From assembly GCA_045807565.1 (NCBI GenBank), contig JBJMHD010000146.1, positions 3,085 through 67,084 on the forward strand: a DNA stretch of 64,000 nt, given 5' to 3'. Made by a program: the position numbers and the translations under genes. Source of the stretch: Acidimicrobiales bacterium. Its GTDB lineage: Bacteria; Actinomycetota; Acidimicrobiia; Acidimicrobiales; VFJN01. This document shows, one piece after another, positions 2 to 55,968 of the stretch (position 1 is its first letter; the number at the start of each line of letters is the position of its first letter). The notes beneath the pieces were generated by a model that searched no databases, had not been told where the DNA came from, and saw only the letters and a program-made list of their open reading frames with translations.

Positions 2-1285
2 GTGCACTTCTACGGCGCCAAGGAGGTGGACTACATCCTCCGGGCCACCGAGCCCAGGGTGGTCGTCACCGCCGACCGCTTCGGGCTCACCGACCACCTC
101 GCCACCTGGGACGCGCTGCTCGAGCAGCACGCGGGCCCGCGGTGGCTGGTGGTGGGCGACACGCCCGCGAACCAGCTGCCGAGCGGCGCGTTGGCCTTCG
201 CCGACACCTTGGACGCCGACCCGATCGAGGAGCCCGTCGCGGTCGACCCCGACGCCCCCGCGCTCATCGCGTTCACCTCCGGCACGACGAAGGACCCCAA
301 GGGCGTCATCCACTCCCATCGCACCATCACGTGCGAAGCCCGCCAGCTCGACCACATGTTCCCGAGGGGCGGACCGCCCACGATCACGGGGGCGCCGGTG
401 GGCCACTTCATCGGGATGCTCAACGCCTTCGTGGTGCCGCTGCTGCGCGACACCCCGGTGAACATGGTCGACGTGTGGGACCCCGGCGAGATCCTGCGGC
501 TCATGCTGGCCCACGACATCGGCGTTGGCGGCGGGGCCACCTTCTTCCTGACGAGCGTCCTCGACCACCCCGACCTCACCGACGAGCACCTCGCCCGCAT
601 GCCGTTCGCCGGCCTCGGCGGCTCGTCGGTGCCCGCAGCCGTCACCGAGCGGGCCGAGGGGCTGGGCATCAGGGCGTTCCGCTCCTACGGCAGCACCGAG
701 CACCCGTCGATCACCGGGTCGCTCATCGACGACGACGCCGCCAAGCGCCTCCACACCGATGGCAAGCCGCTGCCTGGGGTGGAGATCCGCCTCGACGAGC
801 ACGGCGAGATCTCCAGCCGCGGTCCCGACTGCTTCGTGGGGTACACCGACCAGGCGCTGACCGACTCCGTCTTCGACGCCGACGGCTGGTACCGCACGGG
901 CGACGTCGGCGTGCTGGATGCCGACGGCTATCTCACGATCACCGACCGCGTGAGCGACATCATCATCCGGGGCGGCGAGAACATCAGCGCCCAGGAGGTG
1001 GAGGAGCTCCTCCTCGGCGTGGACGGGGTGGCCGAGGTCGCCGTCGTCGCCGCTCCCGACGAGCGCATGGGCGAGCGCGCTGCGGCCTTCGTCCGCCTCC
1101 GCGAGGGTTCCCCAGCGCCGACCCTGGAGGACGTCCGGGCCCACCTCGCCGCGACCGGGCTGGCCAAGCAGAAGTGGCCCGAGTCGCTGCACGCCGTGGA
1201 AGGGGACCTCCCCCGCACCCCCTCGGGCAAGGTGCAGAAGTACCGGCTGCGCCAGAGCCTGCGCGACGGCACGCCCTGGAAATGA
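2..1285 (+). CDS. AMP-dependent acyl-CoA synthetase/ligase, 5' end cut by window edge
   Basis: The ORF is open at the window start. It has the AMP-binding motif FTSGTTKDPKGV, a GWYRTGD core and a C-terminal PSGKVQKY lysine loop. Confidence 0.85.
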   Translation: MHFYGAKEVDYILRATEPRVVVTADRFGLTDHLATWDALLEQHAGPRWLVVGDTPANQLPSGALAFADTLDADPIEEPVAVDPDAPALIAFTSGTTKDPKGVIHSHRTITCEARQLDHMFPRGGPPTITGAPVGHFIGMLNAFVVPLLRDTPVNMVDVWDPGEILRLMLAHDIGVGGGATFFLTSVLDHPDLTDEHLARMPFAGLGGSSVPAAVTERAEGLGIRAFRSYGSTEHPSITGSLIDDDAAKRLHTDGKPLPGVEIRLDEHGEISSRGPDCFVGYTDQALTDSVFDADGWYRTGDVGVLDADGYLTITDRVSDIIIRGGENISAQEVEELLLGVDGVAEVAVVAAPDERMGERAAAFVRLREGSPAPTLEDVRAHLAATGLAKQKWPESLHAVEGDLPRTPSGKVQKYRLRQSLRDGTPWK

Positions 1286-2930: not shown

Positions 2931-3520
2931 GCCCGCCGCGCATCCCGCCGTTGCCTCCTGCCGAGTGGCCCGAGGCCATGCAGGGCGCGCTCGCTGCGCT
3001 CCAGCCGCCGAACCCGCGCCACCCCCGTCCACCGCGCGATCCCGACCGTCCCAAGGGGCTCAACGTCCTCGGCACCCTCGCCCACCACCCCGACCTCACC
3101 ACCGCGTTCCACACGCTCACGGGGCACGTGCTCTTCGCATCCACGATCACGCCACGGCAGCGCGAGCTGCTCGTGCTGCGCGTCGCCCACCTGCGGCAGG
3201 CCGACTACGAGTGGACCCAGCACGTGCTGCTGGCCTCGGACGCCGGCATCACCGCCGAGGAGGTCGGCCGTGTCGCCGAGGGGCCCGACGCGGCCGGGTG
3301 GGCACCGCTCGAGGCGGCGCTCGTCCGGGCCGTCGACGAGCTCGTCGCCGACGCCCACGTCGCCGAGGCCACCTGGTCGGTGCTGGCCCAGCACCTGGAC
3401 ACCCACCAGCTCATGGACGTCGTGTTCACGGTCGGCACCTACGAGGTGCTCGCCATGGCGCTGCGCACCTTCGGGGTGGAGCTGGACGCCGACCTTGTCC
3501 GGAAACCGGCTTCTCCGTAG
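2927..3520 (+). CDS. carboxymuconolactone decarboxylase (AhpD-like) family protein
   Basis: The GTG start overlaps the upstream stop (GTGA). The helical CMD-like core runs RQRELLVLRVAHLRQADYEWTQH ... FTVGTYEVLAMAL. No CxxC motif is present. Confidence 0.65.
   Translation: MSPPRIPPLPPAEWPEAMQGALAALQPPNPRHPRPPRDPDRPKGLNVLGTLAHHPDLTTAFHTLTGHVLFASTITPRQRELLVLRVAHLRQADYEWTQHVLLASDAGITAEEVGRVAEGPDAAGWAPLEAALVRAVDELVADAHVAEATWSVLAQHLDTHQLMDVVFTVGTYEVLAMALRTFGVELDADLVRKPASP
3501..3515 (-). promoter_or_regulatory. GAGAA-N5-TTTCC box (GAGAAGCCGGTTTCC)
   Basis: It lies at the 3' end of the CMD gene, 55 nt upstream of the Rieske-1 ATG. An extended -10-like TGCTATCCT follows at 3531..3539. Confidence 0.3.
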
Positions 3521-3569: not shown

Positions 3570-4862
3570 ATGGCGCACTTCACCAAGCCCGAGGCGGGCA
3601 GCTGGACCGAGCAGTACCCCGACCTCGGCACCGGTCCCGTGTCCTACGAGGACTCCATCTCCCCCGCCTACTACGAGGTGGAGCGCGAGGCGATCTTCAA
3701 GCACTCCTGGCTGAACGTCGGCCGGGTGGAGCAGCTCCCTCGCAAGGGCGCCTACTTCACCAAGGAGATCGACGCCGCCCGCACGTCGGTGATCGTGGTG
3801 CGCGGCACCGACGGCGAGGTGCGCGCCTTCCACAACATCTGCCGCCACCGCGGCAACAAGCTGGTGTGGAACGACTACCCGGGCGAGGAGGTCGACGGCA
3901 CCTGCCGCCAGTTCACCTGCAAGTACCACGGGTGGCGCTACGACCTGGAGGGCGCCCTCACCTTCGTGCAGCAGGAGTCGGAGTTCTTCGACCTCGACAA
4001 GGCCGACTACGGGCTGGTGGCCGTGCAGTGCGAGGTGTGGGAGGGCTTCATCTTCGTCAACCTCGACCCGGACAACACCGAGTCGGCGGCGTCGTACCTC
4101 GGCGACCTGGGCGCCGGCCTCGCGGGGTACCCGTTCGACGAGATGACGGCGGTCTACAAGTACCGCGCCGACGTCGGGAGCAACTGGAAGCTCTTCATCG
4201 ACGCCTTCGCCGAGTTCTACCACGCACCTGTCCTGCACGCGAAGCAAGCCGTGGCCGACGAGTCGCACAAGCTCCAGGGGTACGGCTACGAGGCGCTCGC
4301 CTACGGCATCGACGGTCCCCACAGCATGGTGTCGTCGTGGGGCGGCATGTCCCCGCCCAAGGACCTCGGCATGGTGAAGCCCATCGAGCGGGTGCTGCGG
4401 AGCGGCCTGTTCGGCCCGTGGGACAAGCCCGACATCGGCATCGACGAGCTGCCACCCGGTCTCAACCCCGCGCGCCACAAGGCGTGGGGCACCGACTCGT
4501 TCGTGTTCTTCCCGAACTTCATGGTGCTCGTGTGGGAGCCGGGCTGGTACCTCACGTACCACTACTGGCCGACCGCCTACAACCGCCACACCTTCGAGGG
4601 GACGCTCTACTTCGTGCCGCCGAAGAACGCGACCGAGCGCCTGCGCCAGGAGCTCGCCGCGGTGACGTTCAAGGAGTACGCGCTGCAGGACGGCAACACG
4701 CTGGAGGCCACCCAGCGCAGCATCGAGTCGCGCGCCGTCACGGCCTTCCCCCTCAACGACCAGGAGATCCTCCTGCGCCACCTGCACAAGACGGCGCGGG
4801 ACAAGGTCGCCGCGTTCCAGCAGCGGAACGAGACCTCCGTCCAGATCTCCGCGGCATCCTGA
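3570..4862 (+). CDS. Rieske [2Fe-2S] non-heme iron oxygenase, alpha subunit (copy 1)
   Basis: The Rieske motif is CRHRG...CKYHGW, with a mononuclear iron region EFYHAPVLH. It is a clear paralog of 53487..54758. Confidence 0.85.
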   Translation: MAHFTKPEAGSWTEQYPDLGTGPVSYEDSISPAYYEVEREAIFKHSWLNVGRVEQLPRKGAYFTKEIDAARTSVIVVRGTDGEVRAFHNICRHRGNKLVWNDYPGEEVDGTCRQFTCKYHGWRYDLEGALTFVQQESEFFDLDKADYGLVAVQCEVWEGFIFVNLDPDNTESAASYLGDLGAGLAGYPFDEMTAVYKYRADVGSNWKLFIDAFAEFYHAPVLHAKQAVADESHKLQGYGYEALAYGIDGPHSMVSSWGGMSPPKDLGMVKPIERVLRSGLFGPWDKPDIGIDELPPGLNPARHKAWGTDSFVFFPNFMVLVWEPGWYLTYHYWPTAYNRHTFEGTLYFVPPKNATERLRQELAAVTFKEYALQDGNTLEATQRSIESRAVTAFPLNDQEILLRHLHKTARDKVAAFQQRNETSVQISAAS

Positions 4863-4873
4863 GGAGTCCCACC

Positions 4874-5200
4874 ATGGCCACCCTTCCCCCGGACTTCGCC
4901 GATCTCGAGCCGTTCGTCGACTGGTCGCTCGAGACGGAGGCCGAGCGCTACGCCAAGCGGCTCGCCAGCACCATGGACGAGCTGCAGGCGTTCTACGACG
5001 CGGCCTTCCCGCGCCTCGAAGACGCGATGGCCCACCTCGACGCCCTCGACCTCGGCGCGCTGCCCGAGGACGCCACCCGTCTGCTGTGGCTCTGCTACTC
5101 GCTCGTCAACGCATCGTTCCCCGTCGAGGTGTGGCGGCAGCCCCGTGTGCCCGACAGCGGCGCCGCGAGCATGGACCTGGTGGTGGAGCCGGCGGTCTGA
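4874..5200 (+). CDS. small helical protein of unknown function, partner of Rieske oxygenase (copy 1)
   Basis: The ATG lies 12 nt after the Rieske stop. The ORF is 108 aa with G/C-rich third positions. About 60 of ~110 hand-aligned residues are identical to 53158..53490, which sits in the same position behind the paralogous Rieske gene. Confidence 0.6.
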   Translation: MATLPPDFADLEPFVDWSLETEAERYAKRLASTMDELQAFYDAAFPRLEDAMAHLDALDLGALPEDATRLLWLCYSLVNASFPVEVWRQPRVPDSGAASMDLVVEPAV

Positions 5201-9655: not shown

Positions 9656-10050
9656 CCCTCCGACACGAACTCGGCGGTGCGGTGGTGGAACCGCCACGCA
9701 CCGCCGTCCTCGTGCAAGACGTCCCGGTACCGGCCGACGAGCTGCACCTGCCAGCTCCCGTCGATCCGCAGCAGGAGCACGACGTCGCTGACGGCGGTGG
9801 CCTCGCGCTCGTCCCACGCCGTGATGTTGGTGTTGAGCACGAGGTGGCGCTGCGGCATCCGCGGCACCCAACGCCCGTAGGCCGCCCGCAGCCCGGCGTG
9901 ACCCTCGTGGACCCCGAGGTCGCCCATGTCGATGGCACCGTCCTCGCAGAAGGTGGCGACCACGTCGTCGGTGCGGCCGTCGTCCAGCGCATGGGCGTAC
10001 GCCGCCAGCGCGTTGCGGACACCCTCGCTCACGTCGGCGAAGCTGGCCAT
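9652..10050 (-). CDS. NTF2/SnoaL-like protein, possible beta-like partner of the upstream Rieske oxygenase
   Basis: The ATG at 10050 overlaps the TGA of the Rieske gene by 1 nt. The 132-aa ORF has a SnoaL_4-like pattern (ALAAYAHALDDGRTDDVVATF ... GAWRFHHR). Confidence 0.7.
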   Translation of the reverse strand: MASFADVSEGVRNALAAYAHALDDGRTDDVVATFCEDGAIDMGDLGVHEGHAGLRAAYGRWVPRMPQRHLVLNTNITAWDEREATAVSDVVLLLRIDGSWQVQLVGRYRDVLHEDGGAWRFHHRTAEFVSEG

Positions 10051-11417
10051 CAGAGGTCGAGGTCCACGATGGGCCGCTCGAGGGGGTTCACGTTGACCTC
10101 TCGCAGGGCCGGGAGCAGCCGCTCGTACGGCAGCCCGGCGAGGAAGCCGTCGATCACGCGCTCGAGGTTGGCCAGGTGGCCCTCGGCGCGCTCCGAGAAC
10201 CGCATGTACTCGAACCCCTTGGTGTGGAGGCCGCGCTGCTGCTTCGGCAGGTTCGAGAAGTCCTGGGTGGGGATCGGCGGCCAGCGGGGGTCGTCGTGCT
10301 CCCACACCTCCGGCGGGGTGGGCGGCGGCGGCTCGTGTCCCTCGGGGTAGCGGGTGAGCGACCAGATCTCCATCAGCGTCTCCTCCGGTCCCAGCGGCCG
10401 GAAGCGGTACGACGACGCGCTGCTGTACATCGGCAGCACGAACCAGTGCGGGAAGCAGTACCCCATCGGCTCGTTGACGCCCCGAGCCTCGAGGTCGTTC
10501 AGGTCCGGCACGTCATGTCCCTGGGCCCGGTGCCACTCGACCACGGCGTCGTTGAGCGAGCGGTACCAGGTGGCCATCCCCTCCTCGGCGTCGGCCGGGA
10601 GCTCGAGGTCGCGCAGCTCCTCGGCGATGCGGAGGTCGCTGGCGTGGACCATGCCCGCCATGCCGTCGCTCATCGTGCGCAGGTACTGCAGCTCGGCCTC
10701 GACGAACGCGCGGGGATCGAAGGGCGCCCCCTCCTTCGCCGAGTAGCGCATGCCTGGGATCACGAGCTGCGGGTGCGCCTCCACGACGTGGTACTGCTCC
10801 TGGAAGGCCTGCTGCGCGAGCTTCCAGTTCACGGGGAGCCGGCAGGCGTACCACCACTCCGTGCGCAGCGACTCCACCTTCCAGGCGTCGAGGATCGTGG
10901 CCGCCGGCTCGAGGCACTCGCGCAGCGGCGGCGCGCTGTCATCCAGGTTGATCCACGCGCACCCGCCCCAGGTGTCGCAGCGCACGGGCACGAGGTCGAT
11001 GTCACCGGGCTGGAGCTGGTGCTCGCCGAAGGTCCGGCGCTGGGGCACGTGGGTGTTCTCGCCGTCCTGGCCGTAGCACCACCCGTGGAAGGGGCAGGTG
11101 AACCCGCTCTCGCACGTGGCCCGCCCGGTGACGAGCTTCACGCCTCGGTGTCGGCAGGCGTTCTGGAACGCTCGCACCGCCCCGTCGCCGCCCCGCAGCA
11201 CGATCACGGACTGGTCGAGGATCTCGTACTCCACGGCGTCGCCGGGGCTCGGGATCTCCTCCAGGCGGCACGCCATCTGCCACACCCGGGACCACAGCTG
11301 GTCGGCCTCGAGGGCAAAGAACGCAGGATCGACGTAGCGCTCCTTGGCGGCACGGTCCGGCACCTCGATCGCGTGGGGCACCGGCAGGGCCGCCCACTTG
11401 TGATCCACGATCGCCAT
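10050..11417 (-). CDS. Rieske [2Fe-2S] non-heme iron oxygenase, alpha subunit (copy 2, divergent type)
   Basis: The Rieske motif is CRHRG...CPFHGW. The catalytic domain has a QEQYHVVEAH iron motif. Confidence 0.85.
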   Translation of the reverse strand: MAIVDHKWAALPVPHAIEVPDRAAKERYVDPAFFALEADQLWSRVWQMACRLEEIPSPGDAVEYEILDQSVIVLRGGDGAVRAFQNACRHRGVKLVTGRATCESGFTCPFHGWCYGQDGENTHVPQRRTFGEHQLQPGDIDLVPVRCDTWGGCAWINLDDSAPPLRECLEPAATILDAWKVESLRTEWWYACRLPVNWKLAQQAFQEQYHVVEAHPQLVIPGMRYSAKEGAPFDPRAFVEAELQYLRTMSDGMAGMVHASDLRIAEELRDLELPADAEEGMATWYRSLNDAVVEWHRAQGHDVPDLNDLEARGVNEPMGYCFPHWFVLPMYSSASSYRFRPLGPEETLMEIWSLTRYPEGHEPPPPTPPEVWEHDDPRWPPIPTQDFSNLPKQQRGLHTKGFEYMRFSERAEGHLANLERVIDGFLAGLPYERLLPALREVNVNPLERPIVDLDL

Positions 11418-11447: not shown

Positions 11448-11484
11448 GAGAACTATGCTAACCGCTCAGTACAATGACGTTCTC
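11448..11484. promoter_or_regulatory. inverted repeat GAGAAC-N25-GTTCTC in the Rieske-2 / BVMO divergent gap
   Basis: The arms are at 11448..11453 and 11479..11484. The right arm lies in codons 2-4 of the BVMO gene. Confidence 0.3.
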
Positions 11485-13105
11485 GCCCGGTTCCGAGCCG
11501 GTGGACGTGCTGGTCGTCGGCGCCGGCATCACCGGGATCTACCAGCTCTTCCGCGCCCGCGAGGCCGGGTTCTCGGTCGGTCTGCTCGAGGCGGGGGACG
11601 GGGTGGGCGGCACCTGGTTCTGGAACCGCTACCCCGGGGCCCGGTTCGACTCGGAGAGCTACACGTACGGCTACTTCTTCAGCCAGGAGCTCTTCGACGA
11701 GTGGGAGTGGTCGGAGCACTTCGCCGGCCAGCCCGAGGTGGAGCGGTACCTGAACCACGTCGTCGACCGCTTCGACCTGCGGCGCCACATGCGCTTCGGC
11801 GCGCAGGTCGCCTCGGCACGGTTCGACGAGGGCAGCGCCACCTGGGCCGTCACCACCGACGGCGGCGACGTCGTACGCGCCCGCTTCCTCATCTCCTCCA
11901 CCGGCGTGCTCTCGGTGCCGTACGTCCCGGACGTCCCCGGGCAGGACGACTTCCTCGGGGTGCAGCAGCACACCGGGCGGTGGCCGGCCTCCCCCGTCGA
12001 GCTGGCCGGGAAGCGGGTGGCGGTGATCGGCACCTCGTCGAGCGGGGTGCAGGTCGTGGCCGCGATCGTCGACGAGGTCGCCGCGCTCACCGTCTACCAG
12101 CGGTCCGCGAACTGGTGCACGCCCCTGAACAACCGACCCATCACCGCCGAGGAGCAGGCGGCCCTGCGCGCCGACTTCGAGCAGCTGCGCCACACGGTGA
12201 GCACGTCGGTGCACGGCTTCCACCACCCGGTCAACGAGCGCAGCGCCTTCGACGACACCCCGGAGGCGCGCCTCGCGTTCTTCGAGGAAATGTGGGCGAG
12301 CCCGGGGTTCATGAAGTTCACGAGCAACTACGTCGACCTCCTCACCAACCCTGAGGCGAACGCCGAGTGGTGCGAGTTCATCGCCGGCAAGATCCGCGAG
12401 CTCGTGCACGACCCCGACACCGCCGAGCGGCTCATCCCCACCGACCACCGCTACGGCGAGAAGCGACCGCCCTACGTCGCCGGCTACTTCGAGGTGTTCA
12501 ACGAGCCGCACGTCGAGCTGGTCGACCTGCGCGACACCCCGATCGTGCGCCTCACCCCGACGGGGATCGACACGACGGGGGGCACGCGAGAACACGACGT
12601 GATCGTGTGGGCCACCGGGTTCGACTTCGGCACCGGAGCCCTGCGCCGCATGGGCATCCGGGGCCGCGGCGGCCTCGCCCTCGAGGACCACTGGGCCGAC
12701 GGCCCCACCACGTTCCTGGGCGTGCAGACCGCAGGGTTCCCCAACCTCTTCTTCCCCGGCGGCCCGCACGCCGCCGCCGGCAACAACCCCCGGTACAACG
12801 GCGACCAGGTCGACTTCATCACGGACCTCCTCGTCCACGCCCGCGCCCGAGGCTGCGATCTCGTCGAGGTCACATCGGAAGCCGAGGATCGCTGGACGGC
12901 GACGATCGACAAGGCCGCCGCTCGCACCCCGTTCGGCACGATCGGCCAGTACGTGGGCGGGAACATCCCGGGGAAGCCCCGGCGGTACCTGTTGAACGCG
13001 GCCGGCCGTCCGAAGCTGTTCTCGACGATCGCCGAGGTGGTCGACGCCGGCTACGCCGACTTCAGGATGACGTCCCTCGCCGAGCCCGCCGCGCCCCGGA
13101 GCTGA
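11474..13105 (+). CDS. Baeyer-Villiger (type I flavin-containing) monooxygenase
   Basis: It has the FAD motif GAGITG, GGTWFWNRYPG, the BVMO fingerprint FLGVQQHTGRWP and a second Rossmann motif GTSSSG. Confidence 0.85.
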   Translation: MTFSPGSEPVDVLVVGAGITGIYQLFRAREAGFSVGLLEAGDGVGGTWFWNRYPGARFDSESYTYGYFFSQELFDEWEWSEHFAGQPEVERYLNHVVDRFDLRRHMRFGAQVASARFDEGSATWAVTTDGGDVVRARFLISSTGVLSVPYVPDVPGQDDFLGVQQHTGRWPASPVELAGKRVAVIGTSSSGVQVVAAIVDEVAALTVYQRSANWCTPLNNRPITAEEQAALRADFEQLRHTVSTSVHGFHHPVNERSAFDDTPEARLAFFEEMWASPGFMKFTSNYVDLLTNPEANAEWCEFIAGKIRELVHDPDTAERLIPTDHRYGEKRPPYVAGYFEVFNEPHVELVDLRDTPIVRLTPTGIDTTGGTREHDVIVWATGFDFGTGALRRMGIRGRGGLALEDHWADGPTTFLGVQTAGFPNLFFPGGPHAAAGNNPRYNGDQVDFITDLLVHARARGCDLVEVTSEAEDRWTATIDKAAARTPFGTIGQYVGGNIPGKPRRYLLNAAGRPKLFSTIAEVVDAGYADFRMTSLAEPAAPRS

Positions 13106-49927: not shown

Positions 49928-51070
49928 GTGTCCTCGCCTTCCCCTGCCGTCCCGCTCGACGACGACGCCGGCGGGATCCCCGGGCCGACGACCCACCCGC
50001 TGGCCTCGGCGTTGGGCATGGGCGCCTGGGGGCTGCGCATGGCACCGGAGGTCGCGACGGGCCTCGCCCGACTGCTCCTGAACCCGGCCCGGCTGTACCG
50101 CCGCGCCCGGGGCCAGTCGCGCACCGCCCGAACGCTCGGCGACGCGCTCTCCGAGGTGGTCACGGGCCCCAAGGGGATCACCGCTCCCAGCGTGGCCACG
50201 GTCGGCCGGCTGGTGCTCGACAGCGGTCGCTACCGCGTGGCACGGGGCGTCGCGTACGGGCCAGCACGGGGCCAGGTGCTCGACGTGTGGCGGTCACCCG
50301 ACCTCGACCCGGCGACGAGCTCGGCGCCCGTGCTCGTGTACGTCCCTGGTGGCGGCTGGGTGTTCGGCTCGACCGCGCTGCAGGGCACCGCGCTGCTGGG
50401 CCACCTCGCGGCGCACGGATGGGTGTGCGTCAGCGTGGGCTACCGAGCCTCGCCGCAGCACCGCTGGCCCACCCACCTCCACGACGTGAAGCGCGCGCTG
50501 GGCTGGGTCCACGGCACCATCGCAGAGCACGGCGGTGACCCCGAGCAGATCGCCATCGCCGGTGCGTCCGCGGGAGGCCACCTGGCCGCCCTCGCCGCGC
50601 TCACGCCCGGCGACACCTCGCTGCAGCCCGGGTTCGAAGGCGACCGCACCGATGTGACCGCGGTGGTCGGGCTCTACGGCCGCTACGACTGGGAGAGCCG
50701 CGACACCCTCGAGCGACAGCGGTTCATGGCGTTCCTCGAGCGGATCGTGGTCGGTGCGACGCAGGCCGAGGCGGCCCACCTGTTCGCGGCCGCGTCCCCG
50801 ATCGCCCTCGCCGGCGACCACGCTCCGCCCTTCCTCGTCGTCCACGGTCGCAGCGACGCCGTCATCCCCGTGCACCAGGCGCGCGAGTTCGTGGCTCGGC
50901 TCCGCGAGGTGTCCGCCGCGCCCGTCGCCTACGCCGAGCTCCCGGGCACCGGCCACGCCTTCGACCTCATCGACCCGTTCCGCGCCGCCCACCTGGCGCG
51001 CGCCGTGGAGCTGTTCCTGCGCACGGTCCAGGTCGACTCGGCACGACCGCCCGCGGAGCAGACGGCCTGA
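49928..51070 (+). CDS. alpha/beta hydrolase (esterase/lipase, Abhydrolase_3-like) with N-terminal extension
   Basis: It has the oxyanion region VPGGGWVFGS, the nucleophile elbow GASAGGH and a distal GTGHAFD. Confidence 0.75.
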   Translation: MSSPSPAVPLDDDAGGIPGPTTHPLASALGMGAWGLRMAPEVATGLARLLLNPARLYRRARGQSRTARTLGDALSEVVTGPKGITAPSVATVGRLVLDSGRYRVARGVAYGPARGQVLDVWRSPDLDPATSSAPVLVYVPGGGWVFGSTALQGTALLGHLAAHGWVCVSVGYRASPQHRWPTHLHDVKRALGWVHGTIAEHGGDPEQIAIAGASAGGHLAALAALTPGDTSLQPGFEGDRTDVTAVVGLYGRYDWESRDTLERQRFMAFLERIVVGATQAEAAHLFAAASPIALAGDHAPPFLVVHGRSDAVIPVHQAREFVARLREVSAAPVAYAELPGTGHAFDLIDPFRAAHLARAVELFLRTVQVDSARPPAEQTA

Positions 51071-51081
51071 GAGACCTGCGC

Positions 51082-52323
51082 TCAGGCGCGGCGCTTGTGC
51101 ACGACGCCGTCCTTCATCACGAACGGGACGCGCTGGAAGGTGGTGACGTCGGCGAGGGGGTCGCCCGTCACCCCGATGATGTCGGCGAGCATCTCCGGGG
51201 CGATCCGGCCGAGCTCGGGCCGATCGATGAGGTCGGCCGCCACCGTGGTCGCCGCCCGGATCGCCTGGATGGGGGTCATGCCCCGCTGCACGAGGACCTC
51301 GAGCTCCTCGGCGTTGCGGCCGTGCCAGATGGCGGGAGCATCGGTGCCGAGAGCGATCTTCACCCCCGCCTCGATGGCCTTGGCGAGCGACTCCTTGGCC
51401 TTCGGGAAGACCTCGGCCGCCTTGGCCTGGAGCGATCGGGGCTGGTTGGACATGTCCCAGTTCTCGGTGAGCGCGCAGGTCGACACGAGGAACGTGTCGG
51501 TGTCCACGAGCCGCCGGATCGTGTCGTCGGTGATCATCATCCCGTGCTCGATGCAGTCGATGCCGGCGTCCAGAGCGGCGTTGACGGCGGTGTCGCCGTG
51601 GCAGTGCGTGGCGACCCGGAGGCCGCGACGATGCGCCTCGTCCGCGATCGCCGCCAGCTCCTCGGTGGAGTACTGCTGGGCGCCGGGCGGGCCCGTCGGC
51701 GTCATCACGCCGCCTGACGCGCAGCACTTGATCAGCTGCGCGCCGTGGGTGATCTGGTAGCGGACGGCCTTGCGCACCTCGTCGATGCCGTCGGCGATCC
51801 CCTCCTCGACGGTCATCGGCATGATCCCCGGCGCGAGGCCGCTCTGGGCGCTGGGGTCGAGGTGACCGCCCGTGGGGCAGATGGCATGGCCGGCCGGGAT
51901 CACGCGCGGGCCCACGACCCACCCGGCGTCGATGGCCTCGGCGAGGGCGACGTCCACCAGGTAGCCGCCCGTCTTGATGAACAGGCCGAGGTTCCTGACG
52001 GTGGTGAAGCCCGCCCGGAGGGTGCGCTGCCCGTTGGCGACGGCACGGAGCCCCATCTTCACGGGGTCGAGGCGGACCGGGTCCGTGAGGCCGGCGCCGG
52101 GACCCCCGAGCACGAGGTCCACCTCCATGTCCATGAGCCCGGGGACGAGGATCAGGTCGGGCAGGTGGATGACCTCGTCGGCGCCGTCGGAGGCTCCGGG
52201 CTCGTCGGTCACCGCAGTGACCCGGTTCCCCTCGACCACCACGGTGGCGCCGTCGAGGACCTCACCTCGTTCGACGTCGAGGACGCCCTTGGCGCGCAGC
52301 ACGGTGACGGTGGCTTCGGACAT
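51082..52323 (-). CDS. amidohydrolase-superfamily protein with substituted HxH motif
   Basis: K (IKCCASGG), HCH, IEHG and GTDA positions are present. The usual GLxDxHxH strand reads PGLMDMEVD. Confidence 0.7.
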   Translation of the reverse strand: MSEATVTVLRAKGVLDVERGEVLDGATVVVEGNRVTAVTDEPGASDGADEVIHLPDLILVPGLMDMEVDLVLGGPGAGLTDPVRLDPVKMGLRAVANGQRTLRAGFTTVRNLGLFIKTGGYLVDVALAEAIDAGWVVGPRVIPAGHAICPTGGHLDPSAQSGLAPGIMPMTVEEGIADGIDEVRKAVRYQITHGAQLIKCCASGGVMTPTGPPGAQQYSTEELAAIADEAHRRGLRVATHCHGDTAVNAALDAGIDCIEHGMMITDDTIRRLVDTDTFLVSTCALTENWDMSNQPRSLQAKAAEVFPKAKESLAKAIEAGVKIALGTDAPAIWHGRNAEELEVLVQRGMTPIQAIRAATTVAADLIDRPELGRIAPEMLADIIGVTGDPLADVTTFQRVPFVMKDGVVHKRRA

Positions 52324-52346
52324 GGTGCGGCTTCGTCCTCTCTGAC

Positions 52347-53129
52347 CTAGCGGTCCCCGGCACCCTTGGCCGAGATCTCGTCGAGCTTGATGGGTGGCGG
52401 TCCGGCGGTGGTGCCTCCGTCGACCGGGAGCACGGTGCCGGTGACCTGCGCCGACCGGTCGCTGGCCAGGTACACGGCAGCGTTGGCGACATCGCGCGTG
52501 CTGCCGAGGCGCTGGAGGGGTTGGAGCCGCCGCACGATCGACGCCGTGTCGAAGGAGGCGTTGATGTCGGTGGAGATGTTCCCGGGGGCGATGACGTTCA
52601 CGCGCACCCCGAGCTCAGCCACCTCCACGGCCGCGCAGCGGCTGAAGTGGATCACCGCGGCCTTGGCGGCGCGGTACGAGCTGAACCCGATGCCCGGGCT
52701 GATCCCGCCGATCGAGGTGATGTTGATGATCGACCCACCGTCGCGCATGACGCGCGCGGCGCGCTGCGTGCCCACCATCACGCCGTAGAGGTCCACGGCC
52801 ATCACGCTGTCGAAGTCGCGCAGGTCGTCCTGCATCAGCCGCCGGAACGAGCCGGAGATGCCAGCGTTGTTCACCATCACGTCCACGCCCCCGAAGTGCT
52901 CCTGGGCGTGGTCGATGGCCGCCTGGACGCTGTCGGCGCTCGTGACGTCGGTGTGGTGGAACGTGGCGGCATCGCCCAGCGCCTCCACGACGTCACCGCC
53001 CGCGGGGTCGTCGATGTCGGCGACGACCACCCGGCCGCCCTCCGCCACGAACAGCTCAGCGATGGCCCGCCCGATGCCGTTGGCGGCGCCCGTCACGATC
53101 GCGACCTTGTCGGCCAGCTCGATGCCCAT
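52347..53129 (-). CDS. SDR-family oxidoreductase
   Basis: It has TGAANGIG, NNAG and catalytic YRAAK. Confidence 0.85.
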   Translation of the reverse strand: MGIELADKVAIVTGAANGIGRAIAELFVAEGGRVVVADIDDPAGGDVVEALGDAATFHHTDVTSADSVQAAIDHAQEHFGGVDVMVNNAGISGSFRRLMQDDLRDFDSVMAVDLYGVMVGTQRAARVMRDGGSIINITSIGGISPGIGFSSYRAAKAAVIHFSRCAAVEVAELGVRVNVIAPGNISTDINASFDTASIVRRLQPLQRLGSTRDVANAAVYLASDRSAQVTGTVLPVDGGTTAGPPPIKLDEISAKGAGDR

Positions 53130-53157
53130 GGTTGCTGCCTCCGTCCTCGGTCGTGGC

Positions 53158-53490
53158 CTACGGGCGCGGCTCAGCGACGCGATCGATCACTGCCGCACCC
53201 GTGTCGATCGGGAGCGCCTGCTGCCACACCTCGATGGCGTACGACACGAGGGCGAGGGAGTGGAGGAGCTGCAGCAACCTGGTGGCGTCGGCCGGCAGCG
53301 CGTCGAGGGGGAGCTCGTCGCAGTGCTCGATGGCGGCCTCCGCACGGGGGAAGCAGGCGTCGTAGAAGCGCTGCATCTCGTCGAACGGCGTCGCCAGGCG
53401 CTGAGCCCACCGCTCGGGCTCCGTGGCCAGGCACCACGCCTCGGCAAAGGGCTCGAGGTCGGCGAACTCAGAGGGCAGCAGCTGGGTCAC
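53158..53490 (-). CDS. small helical protein of unknown function, partner of Rieske oxygenase (copy 2)
   Basis: The GTG at 53490 overlaps the Rieske stop (GTGA). The ORF is 110 aa and is a paralog of 4874..5200. Confidence 0.6.
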   Translation of the reverse strand: MTQLLPSEFADLEPFAEAWCLATEPERWAQRLATPFDEMQRFYDACFPRAEAAIEHCDELPLDALPADATRLLQLLHSLALVSYAIEVWQQALPIDTGAAVIDRVAEPRP

Positions 53491-54758
53491 CGGACTGCTC
53501 CCGCGGTCGCGGCCTCGTCCCGGTGGTGCTGCACCCAGTCGTTGACGCTCTTGTGGAAGTGGCGGACGAGGATCTCCTGGTCGTTGAGCGGGAAGTCGGC
53601 GAAGGCCCTGGACTCCAACCCGAGCTGCGTGCCGTCGAGGGTGCCGGCGTCCTGGAGGGCGTACTCCTTCACGGTGATCGCGGCGTACTCGCGGGCGAGG
53701 CGTTCGCGTGCCGTCGTCGACGGTGTGAACCAGAGGTCCGCCTCGAAGACGTGGGTGTTGTGGGAGGTCGGCCAGAACCGGTAGGTCAGGTACCAGCCCC
53801 GCTCGTAGACGAGGATCTCCAGGTTCGGGAACACCTGGAAGTTGTCGATCCCCCAGCTCTCCACGCCGCCGGGGTTCACTCCCGCACGAGCCTCGTCGAG
53901 GTCCGCCGCGTCCCACGGGCCCATGTTCCCGCTGCGGAAGAGCGCCTCGCTCGGGTAGAGGTGCTCGCGGGGGAAGCGGTGCTTGTGCGAGCCGCTCGTG
54001 CTCACCACGCGGTGCGGGCCGTCGAGCTGGTAGTGCGCTGCCTCGAACTCGGCCTCCGGGTTTCGGTAGCTCGGTCCGAGCTGGTGCGTGTGCAGCGGGG
54101 GCACGTGGTAGTACTCCTGGAAGGCGTCGATGAACACCTTCCAGTTGCTGCGGTTGGCCGCCCGGAAGGAGTACCGCTCCGTCATCTGGTCGAAGGGGTA
54201 CGCCTCCAGGGCGCCGACCATGGGTCCCAGGTACTCGCGCAGCGTCTGGCTCGGACGGTCGGCGAGGTTCACGAAGATGAAGCCGGCCCACACCTCGCAG
54301 TGCACACCCGCCAGCCCCAGCGTCTCCTTCTCGATGTCGAAGAACTCGCGCTCCTGGTGGACGTAGGTGCACGCGCCGTCCAGGCCGTAGCGCCAACCGT
54401 GGTACTTGCAGACGAGCTGGCGTCCGGAGCCAGCGACGTCGTCCCGCGGCGACCCGATCCACACGAGCTTGTTGCCCCGATGGCGGCACACGTTGTGGAA
54501 GGCGCGCACCTCGTCATCCATGCCGCGGGTCACGAGCAGGGAGGTGCGAGCGGCGTGCAGGTCCTTGGTGAAGAAGGTCCCCTTGCGCGGCAGGTCATCG
54601 ATGCGTCCCACGTTCAGCCACGCCTGCCGGAAGATCGCGTCCCGTTCGAGCTCGTAGAAGGCGGGTGACACGGAGTCCTCGAAGGCCACGAAGCCGGTGC
54701 CCAGCTCAGGGTGGTGCTGGGTCCAGGTGCCCTCGGCCGGCCGGGGGAAGCCGGTCAT
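53487..54758 (-). CDS. Rieske [2Fe-2S] non-heme iron oxygenase, alpha subunit (copy 3, paralog of copy 1)
   Basis: The ATG is at 54758. The Rieske motif is CRHRG...CKYHGW, with an iron motif EYYHVPPLH. It is collinear with 3570..4862 along its whole length. Confidence 0.85.
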   Translation of the reverse strand: MTGFPRPAEGTWTQHHPELGTGFVAFEDSVSPAFYELERDAIFRQAWLNVGRIDDLPRKGTFFTKDLHAARTSLLVTRGMDDEVRAFHNVCRHRGNKLVWIGSPRDDVAGSGRQLVCKYHGWRYGLDGACTYVHQEREFFDIEKETLGLAGVHCEVWAGFIFVNLADRPSQTLREYLGPMVGALEAYPFDQMTERYSFRAANRSNWKVFIDAFQEYYHVPPLHTHQLGPSYRNPEAEFEAAHYQLDGPHRVVSTSGSHKHRFPREHLYPSEALFRSGNMGPWDAADLDEARAGVNPGGVESWGIDNFQVFPNLEILVYERGWYLTYRFWPTSHNTHVFEADLWFTPSTTARERLAREYAAITVKEYALQDAGTLDGTQLGLESRAFADFPLNDQEILVRHFHKSVNDWVQHHRDEAATAGAVR

Positions 54759-54900
54759 CGTCCCCGATACCTCGCGCTCATCGAGCGATCTAAGCAGACT
54801 CCGCCGCCTCGACCGCTCCCCCCGGACCCCGCCGACGCTCGAACGGATTCCTCGGCAGGACCCGTCTGCGCGCCGGCCCGCATGGGTAGGCGGGGTCGCC

Positions 54901-55968
54901 ATGGACGCGATCACGCTGCTGAAGAACGACCACAAGACCGTCGAAGCGCTCTTCAAGCGCTTCGAGCGCGCCGGCGACGGCGCCCACGCCGAGAAGCGTG
55001 AGGTCGTCGACAAGATCATCGAGGAGCTGGCGATCCACGCCGCCGTCGAGGAGCAGCTCTTCTACCCCGTGACGCGTGCCACCGTGCCCGAGACCGAGGA
55101 CATCGCCCTGGAGAGCCTCGAGGAGCACCACATCGTGAAGTGGGTGCTCTCGGAGCTCGACGGGATGGACCCGAGCGACGAGCGCTTCGACGCCAAGGTC
55201 ACCGTGCTCATGGAGAACGTTCGCCACCACGTGGAGGAGGAGGAGGACGACTACTTCCCCAAGGTCCGGGACGAGCTCGGCCGCAACGCCCTCAACGACC
55301 TCGGCGACGCCATGGAAGCCGCCAAGCGCGTGGCTCCGACCCATCCGCACCCGCGCTCGCCGGACGCGCCTCCGGGGAACCTCGTCGTCGGCACCGCCGC
55401 CGGGGTCGTCGATCGCGTGGGCGACACGATGGCGGGGGCCGCCCAAGGTGGCGCCTACGCCATCGGCGACCTGATCGCCACGGTCCTCCGCCGGAAGAAG
55501 CCCACGTCCTCGCCGCGGGGCAGCTCGACGGCACGGTCGACCGCCACCAAGGTGCGCGACAAGGCCGCCCAAGCGACCGACGCGCTGATCGAGGCTGCCA
55601 CCGACGCCAAGGAGTCGACGACGGCGCGCACCACCAAGGCACGTCGGGCGGGCAAGACCACGGCGCGATCGGCGTCGCGTGGCGCCACGAAGACGGCGAA
55701 GGCCGCCCGGTCAGGCGCCAAGGCCACCGCCACGTCGGCGCGGAAGGGTGCGAAGCGCGTGGCCACCACCGCGAAGCGCTCCGCGAGCGGTGCCCGCAAG
55801 GGCACGACCTCCGCACGGTCCGCCAGCAAGGCGACGGCGACGTCGACGCGGAAGGCGGCAAAGCGCACGCGCAGCACCGCCAAGCGCGCTGCCACCAGCA
55901 CCGGCCGCACCGCACGCAAGGCGACCCGCTCGGCGAAGTCCACCGCCAAGCGGGCGACGAGCCGGTGA
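54901..55968 (+). CDS. hemerythrin (HHE cation-binding) domain protein with long basic low-complexity tail
   Basis: It has NDHKTVEALF, HAAVEEQLFYP, EEHHIVKW and VRHHVEEEEDDYFP His/Glu ligand blocks. The last ~155 aa are almost only K/R/A/T/S/G. Confidence 0.75.
   Translation: MDAITLLKNDHKTVEALFKRFERAGDGAHAEKREVVDKIIEELAIHAAVEEQLFYPVTRATVPETEDIALESLEEHHIVKWVLSELDGMDPSDERFDAKVTVLMENVRHHVEEEEDDYFPKVRDELGRNALNDLGDAMEAAKRVAPTHPHPRSPDAPPGNLVVGTAAGVVDRVGDTMAGAAQGGAYAIGDLIATVLRRKKPTSSPRGSSTARSTATKVRDKAAQATDALIEAATDAKESTTARTTKARRAGKTTARSASRGATKTAKAARSGAKATATSARKGAKRVATTAKRSASGARKGTTSARSASKATATSTRKAAKRTRSTAKRAATSTGRTARKATRSAKSTAKRATSR
55498..55965 (+). repeat. coding low-complexity region: degenerate (S/T)A(K/R)(K/R)xA-type basic repeats
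   Basis: The translation reads ...TARSASRGATKTAKAARSGAKATATSARKGAKRVATTAKRSASGARKG...STAKRATSR. The other frames on both strands also stay open here (55140..56093 +, 55679..56176 +, 55292..56377 -, 55455..56144 -, 55711..56097 -). Confidence 0.6.

Follow-up and report, generated by a model that had tools for sequence, protein, structure and literature searches.

The 64,000-nucleotide stretch of Acidimicrobiales DNA analyzed here (contig JBJMHD010000146.1, hereafter the window) carries two copies of a gene pair in which the gene for a Rieske oxygenase catalytic (alpha) subunit is followed directly by a gene for a small protein of no known family. The second pair, alpha2 and small2, is the subject of this report. 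On the minus strand, alpha2 ends in ...GCA GTC CGG TGA, with the stop codon at 53489-53487, and small2 opens with the GTG at 53490-53488 and continues as a frame of 110 codons to its end at 53158. The ATG at 54758 was taken as the start of alpha2, rather than the longer open reading frame (ORF) from 55019, because the homologs (413-425 amino acids) align from residue 1. The first-pass annotation had described this locus as a second copy of a Rieske plus small-protein unit, joined by a GTGA overlap. The overlap is read directly from the sequence, and the unit was recognized in the same form: alpha2 is intact and 54% identical to its counterpart at locus 1, and small2 matches the ORF at 4874-5200 with 58% identity over 104 amino acids (E = 6e-38). 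A tblastn search found no third copy of the small gene in the window.

A 4-nucleotide overlap of stop and start codons is frequent in bacterial operons and alone says little. The feature that goes beyond chance is the tight junction conserved over about 130 pairs. Approximately 120 of 130 related junctions lie within −4 to +6 nucleotides, and the window shows the same coupling-type layout, with its GTGA overlap placed 7 nucleotides after a GGGAG motif. Related loci have G-rich counterparts (GGGGG or GGAGG) that closely precede the alpha stop codon or span it. From this layout we infer that alpha2 and small2 are translationally coupled. A scan of 50800-55200 for promoter and terminator consensus sequences gave zero matches, a result that is uninformative in DNA of 71% GC.

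Alpha2 matches the Pfam families Rieske (PF00355; E = 2.5e-14, 53 bits for a cut-off of 20) and Ring_hydroxyl_A (PF00848; E = 9.2e-40, 137 bits for a cut-off of 25). The ligands of the Rieske [2Fe-2S] cluster, C91, H93, C117, and H120 (C-x-H ... C-x-x-H), are invariant in 36 homologs, as is the catalytic motif E215-Y-Y-H218-V-P-P-L-H223, which contains the iron-ligand pattern H-x4-H with an acidic residue in front. In the C-terminal helices, D370 is invariant and D393 nearly so, and both are candidates for the carboxylate that serves as third iron ligand. As judged by these conserved residues, alpha2 is confirmed as an intact Rieske oxygenase alpha subunit. Its AlphaFold2 (AF2) model, calculated as a monomer, has a predicted template modeling score (pTM) of 0.81, with Stc2 and CntA as the top structural matches. 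Residues 218-302 (window about 53853-54107), which comprise the iron-ligand histidines and a variable region of the catalytic domain, are predicted with low confidence. Either a shallow alignment or a segment that becomes ordered on contact with a partner or substrate could account for this.

The GC content at third codon positions (GC3) of the small2 frame is 0.93 (53161-53490), compared with 0.44 for the same open frame upstream, inside alpha2. The ratio of nonsynonymous to synonymous substitution rates (dN/dS) is 0.14-0.40, both for small2 versus six orthologs and for the orthologs among themselves. Database searches retrieved 845 homolog clusters with small2 as the query and 5,852 with small1, and a profile search of 1.84 billion representatives retrieved 1,307 clusters (50% identity) at E ≤ 0.001. 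The homologs from the small2 and small1 queries are nearly all 105 to 115 amino acids long and are either unnamed or listed as “hypothetical protein.” The small gene is real and under purifying selection.

An alignment of 39 small proteins from both paralog groups contains 25 invariant residues, none of which is a cysteine or a histidine, and the protein is without a recognizable cofactor site. It falls in no Pfam family, the MmoB/DmpM effector families included (39 members scanned at E up to 5, with only chance hits of E ≥ 0.02), and it has no match in NCBIfam or among the sequences of solved Protein Data Bank (PDB) structures. The AF2 model of the small2 monomer, based on the 39-sequence alignment, reached a predicted local distance difference test (pLDDT) score of 87 and a pTM of 0.74. 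It presents four helices, formed by residues 7 to 19, 24 to 33, 36 to 58, and 67 to 89. The C-terminal tail (residues 90 to 110) has a pLDDT of about 58, yet it holds conserved positions. Comparison of the model with the PDB by Foldseek returned nothing with E < 1. The small protein is thus distinct from the NTF2-like beta subunit that classical Rieske dioxygenases have.

The association of the two genes was examined in 79 loci, fetched after a genome scan that found 412 relatives of small2. They come from Acidimicrobiia, Mycobacterium, Nocardia, Frankia, Actinomadura, and Spirillospora and from metagenome-assembled genomes (MAGs) labeled Myxococcota, Deltaproteobacteria, and Spirochaetales. 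The loci were located through the small gene, and alpha homologs were counted when at least 300 residues aligned. In these loci and the window, every alpha homolog (113 of 113) has a small gene within 400 nucleotides downstream on the same strand. The junctions comprise 49 overlaps of 4 nucleotides (ATGA or GTGA), 5 overlaps of 1 nucleotide (TGATG), and 66 gaps of 1 to 6 nucleotides, the last usually with a G-rich motif at the end of alpha. Four look-ups that began from alpha instead gave the same arrangement, with all seven alpha genes followed by a gene for 108 to 112 amino acids without a Pfam match. The adjacency is retained at alpha identities of just 30 to 38%, in the order alpha and then small on plasmids of Novosphingobium, Sphingomonas, and Acinetobacter, and in the reverse order, small and then alpha, in Cupriavidus and Burkholderia. 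A disrupted small gene beside an intact alpha gene, which the first-pass annotation had named as evidence against the unit, was found in no clear case among the loci examined. Split small copies occur solely in the second pairs of three Nanopore-derived MAG loci (L045, L057, and L060).

Neighbor-joining trees of the alpha and small proteins from 105 complete pairs display the same major clades. When both trees are cut into 4 to 12 clusters, the adjusted Rand index between them is 0.81 to 0.94, so that the congruence proposed earlier as a check on co-duplication is indeed observed. The nearest alpha neighbor from another locus is also within the five nearest of the small protein in 90 of the 105 pairs. 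Two full pairs of different clades occur together in 34 loci, with median within-locus identities (alpha, 60%; small, 54%) that resemble those of the two pairs in the window. Given the shared clades and the similar identities, each alpha has remained with its own small partner ever since an ancient duplication, and the trees show the pair to have been duplicated as a unit.

Conventional electron transfer proteins are encoded near these pairs. A reductase with flavin adenine dinucleotide (FAD), nicotinamide adenine dinucleotide (NAD), and 2Fe-2S domains is present in 24 related loci and a plant-type ferredoxin in 42, which argues against the small protein as the electron carrier. The possibility that it is itself a ferredoxin was rejected on the same grounds and for want of a conserved cysteine. 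The window contains no reductase or ferredoxin for the Rieske oxygenases. In a close relative (L088, 3572-6381, compared with window 2-1285), an FAD/NAD reductase gene is divergent from the gene for a coenzyme A (CoA) ligase. Because the CoA ligase gene of the window is cut by its left edge, the reductase probably lies just outside. A third Rieske alpha gene (10050-11417, minus strand), about 35% identical to alpha1 and alpha2 over its N-terminal half, is without a small-partner homolog and is divergent from a flavin-monooxygenase-like gene (11474-13105, plus strand).

The reading favored here, with a probability of roughly 0.55, is that the small protein is a cofactor-less, noncanonical subunit of a CntA/Stc2-like oxygenase. 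It is favored because of the strict adjacency, the co-duplication, the conserved residues of surface type, and the conserved tail that is predicted with low confidence. Physical binding, stoichiometry, and a structural role of the small protein are what we infer from these sequence data. Alpha2 and small2 would together form a two-protein terminal oxygenase. In it, alpha2 would be a catalytically intact Rieske non-heme iron oxygenase of a lineage closest to the alpha-only Stc2 and CntA, and small2 (about 12 kDa, helical, and cofactor-less) would bind alpha as a noncatalytic structural or specificity subunit. The start codon of the small gene overlaps or adjoins the alpha stop, and for this reason small2 and alpha are probably produced in about the same amounts. 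The conserved C-terminal tail of small2, of low confidence when modeled alone, may fold against alpha. Electrons would be supplied by an NAD(P)H reductase of the ordinary type (FAD, NAD, and plant-type 2Fe-2S domains), encoded beside the pair in relatives. A further proposal, to which slightly less than even odds are given, is that the pair represents a new Rieske architecture, in which a catalytic alpha trimer is joined by a cofactor-less helical protein that is no relative of the NTF2-like beta subunit. A large clade spanning Actinomycetota, Myxococcota, and Proteobacteria would require this partner for stability, substrate access, or reductase docking.

Several observations weigh against a permanent subunit. 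CntA and Stc2, the nearest relatives with solved structures, work as trimers of alpha alone. The alpha and small distances are correlated (Mantel r of 0.78, a value reached by 0 of 999 permutations), but neighboring genes behave in the same way. Within one clade, alpha correlates with TauD at 0.81 and with the small protein at 0.86, and with the amidohydrolase at 0.92 and with the small protein at 0.78. As TauD and the amidohydrolase correlate with alpha as well as the small protein does, the correlation mostly reflects shared history rather than specific co-adaptation, and mirror-tree correlation was rejected as evidence for binding. The one exception to the adjacency, an orphan homolog (39% identical), occurs on plasmid pSRL1 of Sphingobium indicum B90A (L080, 6971-7333). 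On this lindane degradation plasmid, it follows linC and an EthD-domain gene between copies of IS6100, with no Rieske alpha gene beside it. Identical matches are found on plasmids of Sphingomonas sp. MM-1 and of Sphingobium sp. TKS and MI1205, and the copy looks like a remnant. Finally, no convincing natural fusion of alpha and small was found.

The apparent fusions, which include read-through ORFs in L029, L052, and L036 and long proteins such as P0244, P0255, P0282, and P0381, all carry frameshift signatures. L029 (at ~5875) and L052 (at ~5880), both from Acidimicrobiaceae MAGs, carry a single additional G at a shared site (TCGCGCGGTGCTCGAG, versus TCGCGCGTGCTCGAG in L026), which is probably a systematic sequencing error. 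The extra G shifts the end of alpha into the small frame and leaves the true alpha C terminus intact in the next frame, which identifies the fusion as an artifact. Programmed frameshifting to a fusion protein was also rejected, as the frame relation between alpha and small varies in relatives (−4 to +6 nucleotides).

The main rival to a stable subunit is a transient helper. The small protein would then act as a chaperone that helps to assemble or mature the Rieske cluster or the mononuclear iron, or as an effector or adaptor that gates reductase docking and electron transfer in the manner of the cofactor-less effectors of diiron monooxygenases. Strict adjacency and co-duplication fit this role equally well, as does the lack of cofactor-type residues. 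With alpha-only trimers as the nearest solved alphas, a permanent extra subunit is not structurally required, and the low-confidence stretch of alpha2 around the active site (218-302) could be ordered by a passing partner. However, tight translational coupling favors equal production, which is more typical of stable subunits, and the Pfam search linked the small protein to neither MmoB/DmpM-type effectors nor a chaperone family. A 2025 review likewise lists no effector protein for Rieske oxygenases, and a transient role is considered unlikely.

Less is to be said for the small protein as a separate member of the pathway that only happens to lie beside alpha, such as a small enzyme or a binder of the oxygenase substrate or product. 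In favor of this are its separate start codon, the lack of any convincing fusion to alpha, and the homolog on the Sphingobium lin plasmids, which has no neighboring alpha gene. That copy, however, is trapped between IS6100 copies and remnant-like. Elsewhere the other neighbors vary by lineage (SDR, TauD, amidohydrolase, enoyl-CoA hydratase, CoA-transferase, or an NTF2-family gene; SDR, short-chain dehydrogenase), whereas alpha stays the constant neighbor even when the order is inverted. No invariant cysteine or histidine and no known fold hint at catalysis, and this explanation appears improbable.

A diverged canonical beta subunit of an alpha3beta3 oxygenase is a very improbable identity for the small protein, although its gene lies directly after alpha, as beta genes do. 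None of the 39 members matches Ring_hydroxyl_B or another Pfam family at E up to 5, the small2 model is all-helical and not of the NTF2-like alpha+beta type seen in Rieske beta subunits, Foldseek found nothing below E = 1 in a PDB that includes many alpha3beta3 oxygenases, and 110 amino acids fall short of the approximately 150 to 190 of beta subunits. A chance open frame, which would be plausible in GC-rich DNA where long spurious ORFs are plentiful, is already refuted by the GC3 jump exactly at the GTG, by the dN/dS values, and by the thousands of equal-length homologs across phyla.

The closest known systems to alpha2 are the alpha-only (alpha3) quaternary-amine Rieske monooxygenases, namely the stachydrine demethylase Stc2 (3vca and 4quq), the carnitine monooxygenase CntA (6y8j), and the glycine betaine monooxygenase GbcA. 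The best PDB sequence matches of alpha2 are CntA (E = 2.6e-22), 3n0q, and Stc2, its model matches Stc2 with an E value of 3.8e-23 and CntA with a template modeling score of up to 0.83 (normalized to the target), and its best NCBIfam match is GbcA. Relatives of alpha2 also share with this group a reductase with FAD, NAD, and 2Fe-2S domains. E215 sits three residues before the first iron-ligand histidine, and CntA likewise uses a bridging glutamate. In contrast, alpha2 is only 17 to 22% identical to Stc2 and CntA, and its score of 114 bits against the GbcA equivalog NF058607 is far under the cut-off of 670, which argues that alpha2 is not a member of those quaternary-amine families. Other differences are the 23 residues that separate the two halves of its Rieske motif and a context with many genes for CoA ligases, acyl-CoA dehydrogenases, thiolases, and P450s. 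Above all, this lineage has an obligatory adjacent small protein (small gene in 113 of 113 cases), for which descriptions of Stc2, CntA, and GbcA give no counterpart and which suggests a departure from the alpha-only trimer.

Other oxygenases offer partial precedents for such a partner. In the caffeine N7-demethylase NdmCDE, the glutathione S-transferase (GST)-like NdmE is a structural partner of the Rieske oxygenase, and thus a case of a Rieske oxygenase that needs a noncanonical, non-redox partner. NdmE nevertheless has a GST fold, is of another size and family, and shows no homology to the small protein. MmoB and DmpM are cofactor-less effectors of about 10 to 16 kDa that are encoded in the operons of diiron monooxygenases and bind the hydroxylase. 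They resemble the small protein in size, in the lack of a cofactor, and in being encoded within an oxygenase operon, but they belong to another oxygenase superfamily and have an alpha/beta fold, and the small protein has no Pfam match to them. In the alpha3beta3 dioxygenases for naphthalene, biphenyl, and terephthalate, a small noncatalytic protein is likewise encoded directly after alpha, and the beta subunits of such enzymes stabilize the oligomer and can tune specificity (2025 review). The small protein differs from these NTF2-like subunits in being all-helical and 110 amino acids long, with no similarity in sequence or fold. Rieske terminal components are described only as alpha3, alpha3beta3, alpha3alpha'3, and stacked alpha3 (2025 review). 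No description of such a small partner for Rieske oxygenases was found in the literature searched, and a paper on an Acinetobacter dichloroaniline cluster was set aside as irrelevant to it.

The features of the two loci and the recurrent P450 gene are collected in Table 1.

Table 1. Features of the two alpha plus small loci and of associated genes in the window
Feature	Position	Strand	Basis or remark
alpha2, Rieske oxygenase catalytic (alpha) subunit, 423 amino acids	53487-54758	minus	Pfam, invariant ligands, AF2 model
small2, helical partner protein of 110 amino acids, no known family	53158-53490	minus	GC3, dN/dS, homologs, AF2
GTGA stop/start overlap of alpha2 and small2	53487-53490	minus	Read from sequence; ATGA/GTGA type in 49 related pairs
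GGGAG, Shine-Dalgarno-like motif inside the alpha2 end	53498-53502	minus	7 nucleotides before the small2 GTG
alpha1, paralogous Rieske alpha subunit, locus 1	3570-4862	plus	Pfam match; 54% identical to alpha2
small1, paralogous small partner	4874-5200	plus	11 nucleotides after alpha1, GGAG in front; 58% identical to small2
SDR2, short-chain dehydrogenase	52347-53129	minus	28 nucleotides downstream of small2; Pfam adh_short, adh_short_C2
Amidohydrolase-superfamily gene, Cc2672/arginine carboxypeptidase-like	51082-52323	minus	Pfam Amidohydro_1
TauD/TfdA-like dioxygenase	1336-2166	plus	Pfam; upstream of alpha1
SDR1	2178-2930	plus	Pfam; upstream of alpha1
CMD-family gene	2936-3520	plus	Pfam; upstream of alpha1
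Cytochrome P450	18744-20027	plus	55% identical to P450 recurring in related alpha plus small clusters

Downstream of small2, the first-pass annotation had placed an SDR and an amidohydrolase-superfamily gene with an altered metal motif, and both assignments are borne out by Pfam and by the sequence E-V-D, found at the usual H-x-H site within PGLMDMEVD from residue 61. An SDR2 ortholog with 66 to 78% identity follows the pair in L001, L003, L005, L009, L011, and L087. The amidohydrolase has 9kov (“trum-mut,” E = 3.3e-79) as its best PDB sequence match, along with the arginine carboxypeptidases 3mtw and 3be7, and it lies downstream of an alpha plus small pair in at least 24 loci. All 44 homologs, found in 43 related loci, have E-x-D or E-x-N at the same site (PGLMDME[VIL][DN]), which across this alignment is a clade-wide variant metal site and no local mutation. 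At locus 1, homologs of the TauD, SDR1, and CMD genes (50 to 66% identity) flank pairs in most Nocardia, Mycobacterium, and Actinomadura loci. Relatives carry the recurrent P450 gene inside their alpha plus small clusters, as in L004, where it comes immediately behind the second pair, and in a contig from JGI. A second P450 gene (20077-21285, plus strand) adjoins the one in the window.

In relatives, the genes that are divided between the two loci of the window occur together. Actinomadura craniellae has the same-strand run reductase-SDR-alpha-small-TauD-alpha-small-amidohydrolase, with a TetR gene upstream on the opposite strand. This layout is common to Nocardia, Spirillospora, and several Acidimicrobiia, and Mycobacterium has the same genes in another order. 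In three Mycobacteriales MAGs (L004, L005, and L011), a pair of the pair 1 clade lies directly upstream of a pair of the pair 2 clade. An Acidimicrobiales MAG with an alpha 83% identical to alpha2 has TauD (on the opposite strand), TetR, alpha, small, SDR2, and amidohydrolase genes, and the TauD of this pair 2-type locus is 60% identical to that of locus 1. Conversely, in a contig with a small1 homolog of 92.5% identity, an amidohydrolase homolog and a reductase flank the locus 1 genes, and the amidohydrolase at the pair 1-type locus of an Acidimicrobiales relative is 70% identical to that of locus 2. Both loci of the window are thus pieces of one recurrent gene set, and their differing context does not show different pathways. 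After the old duplication, both pair lineages would usually serve one catabolic set that comprises the TauD-like, SDR, variant amidohydrolase, CMD-family, and P450 proteins. A division into a TauD-linked pair 1 type and an amidohydrolase-linked pair 2 type was not borne out by the trees. Pair 2 falls in the clade followed by SDR2, which is sister to the TauD-linked clade, and pair 1 groups with L015, with the upstream pairs of L004, L005, and L011, and with some amidohydrolase-linked pairs.

Of the earlier suggestion that the pair is a portable two-gene module reused in different pathways, portability holds in a broad sense, as the pair occurs in unrelated contexts in Proteobacteria and Myxococcota, but use in different pathways is not supported for the two loci of the window, which draw on one enzyme set. 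A Myxococcota MAG has the pair with an enoyl-CoA hydratase, a ChsH2-like protein, a thiolase, and a CoA ligase. Sphingomonas has it with CoA-transferases, and Acinetobacter has it with a formamidase and a styrene-monooxygenase-type system. On the Acinetobacter plasmid pYUSHP14-1 (L081, 5766-7836), the gene immediately after alpha and small belongs to the NTF2 family, and its product may be a beta-like third subunit. Beyond it come genes for a styrene-monooxygenase-type oxygenase, a flavin reductase, an SDR, a Rieske-type ferredoxin, and a reductase.

The window as a whole has many genes for CoA ligases, acyl-CoA dehydrogenases, P450s, and luciferase-like monooxygenases, a content that does not particularly suggest quaternary amines. 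Divergent from alpha2 lies a gene for a hemerythrin-domain protein (54898-55968, plus strand) with a C-terminal tail of ~170 residues that is repetitive, strongly basic, and rich in Ala, Lys, Thr, Arg, and Ser. In closer relatives, its place is held by a TetR or reductase gene.

The GTGA overlap and the presence of a second copy are ordinary. What is notable is the widespread, unannotated small protein that accompanies a large clade of Rieske oxygenases, probably as a partner or subunit that has yet to be described. The comparison also uncovered a recurrent gene set of Actinomycetota, composed of a reductase, an SDR, two alpha plus small pairs, a TauD-like dioxygenase, a P450, and an amidohydrolase without H-x-H. 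Rieske oxygenases are widely mined for biodegradation and biocatalysis. If the proposed role is correct, the small protein would add a third kind of partner, one that occurs in thousands of gene clusters and is annotated just as “hypothetical protein,” and it would raise the question of what a cofactor-less helical subunit contributes to these oxygenases. It would be an extra component to co-express when these enzymes are reconstituted, which would explain why such alpha subunits might fail alone, and its gene would provide a simple genomic marker for a large uncharacterized clade of oxygenases.

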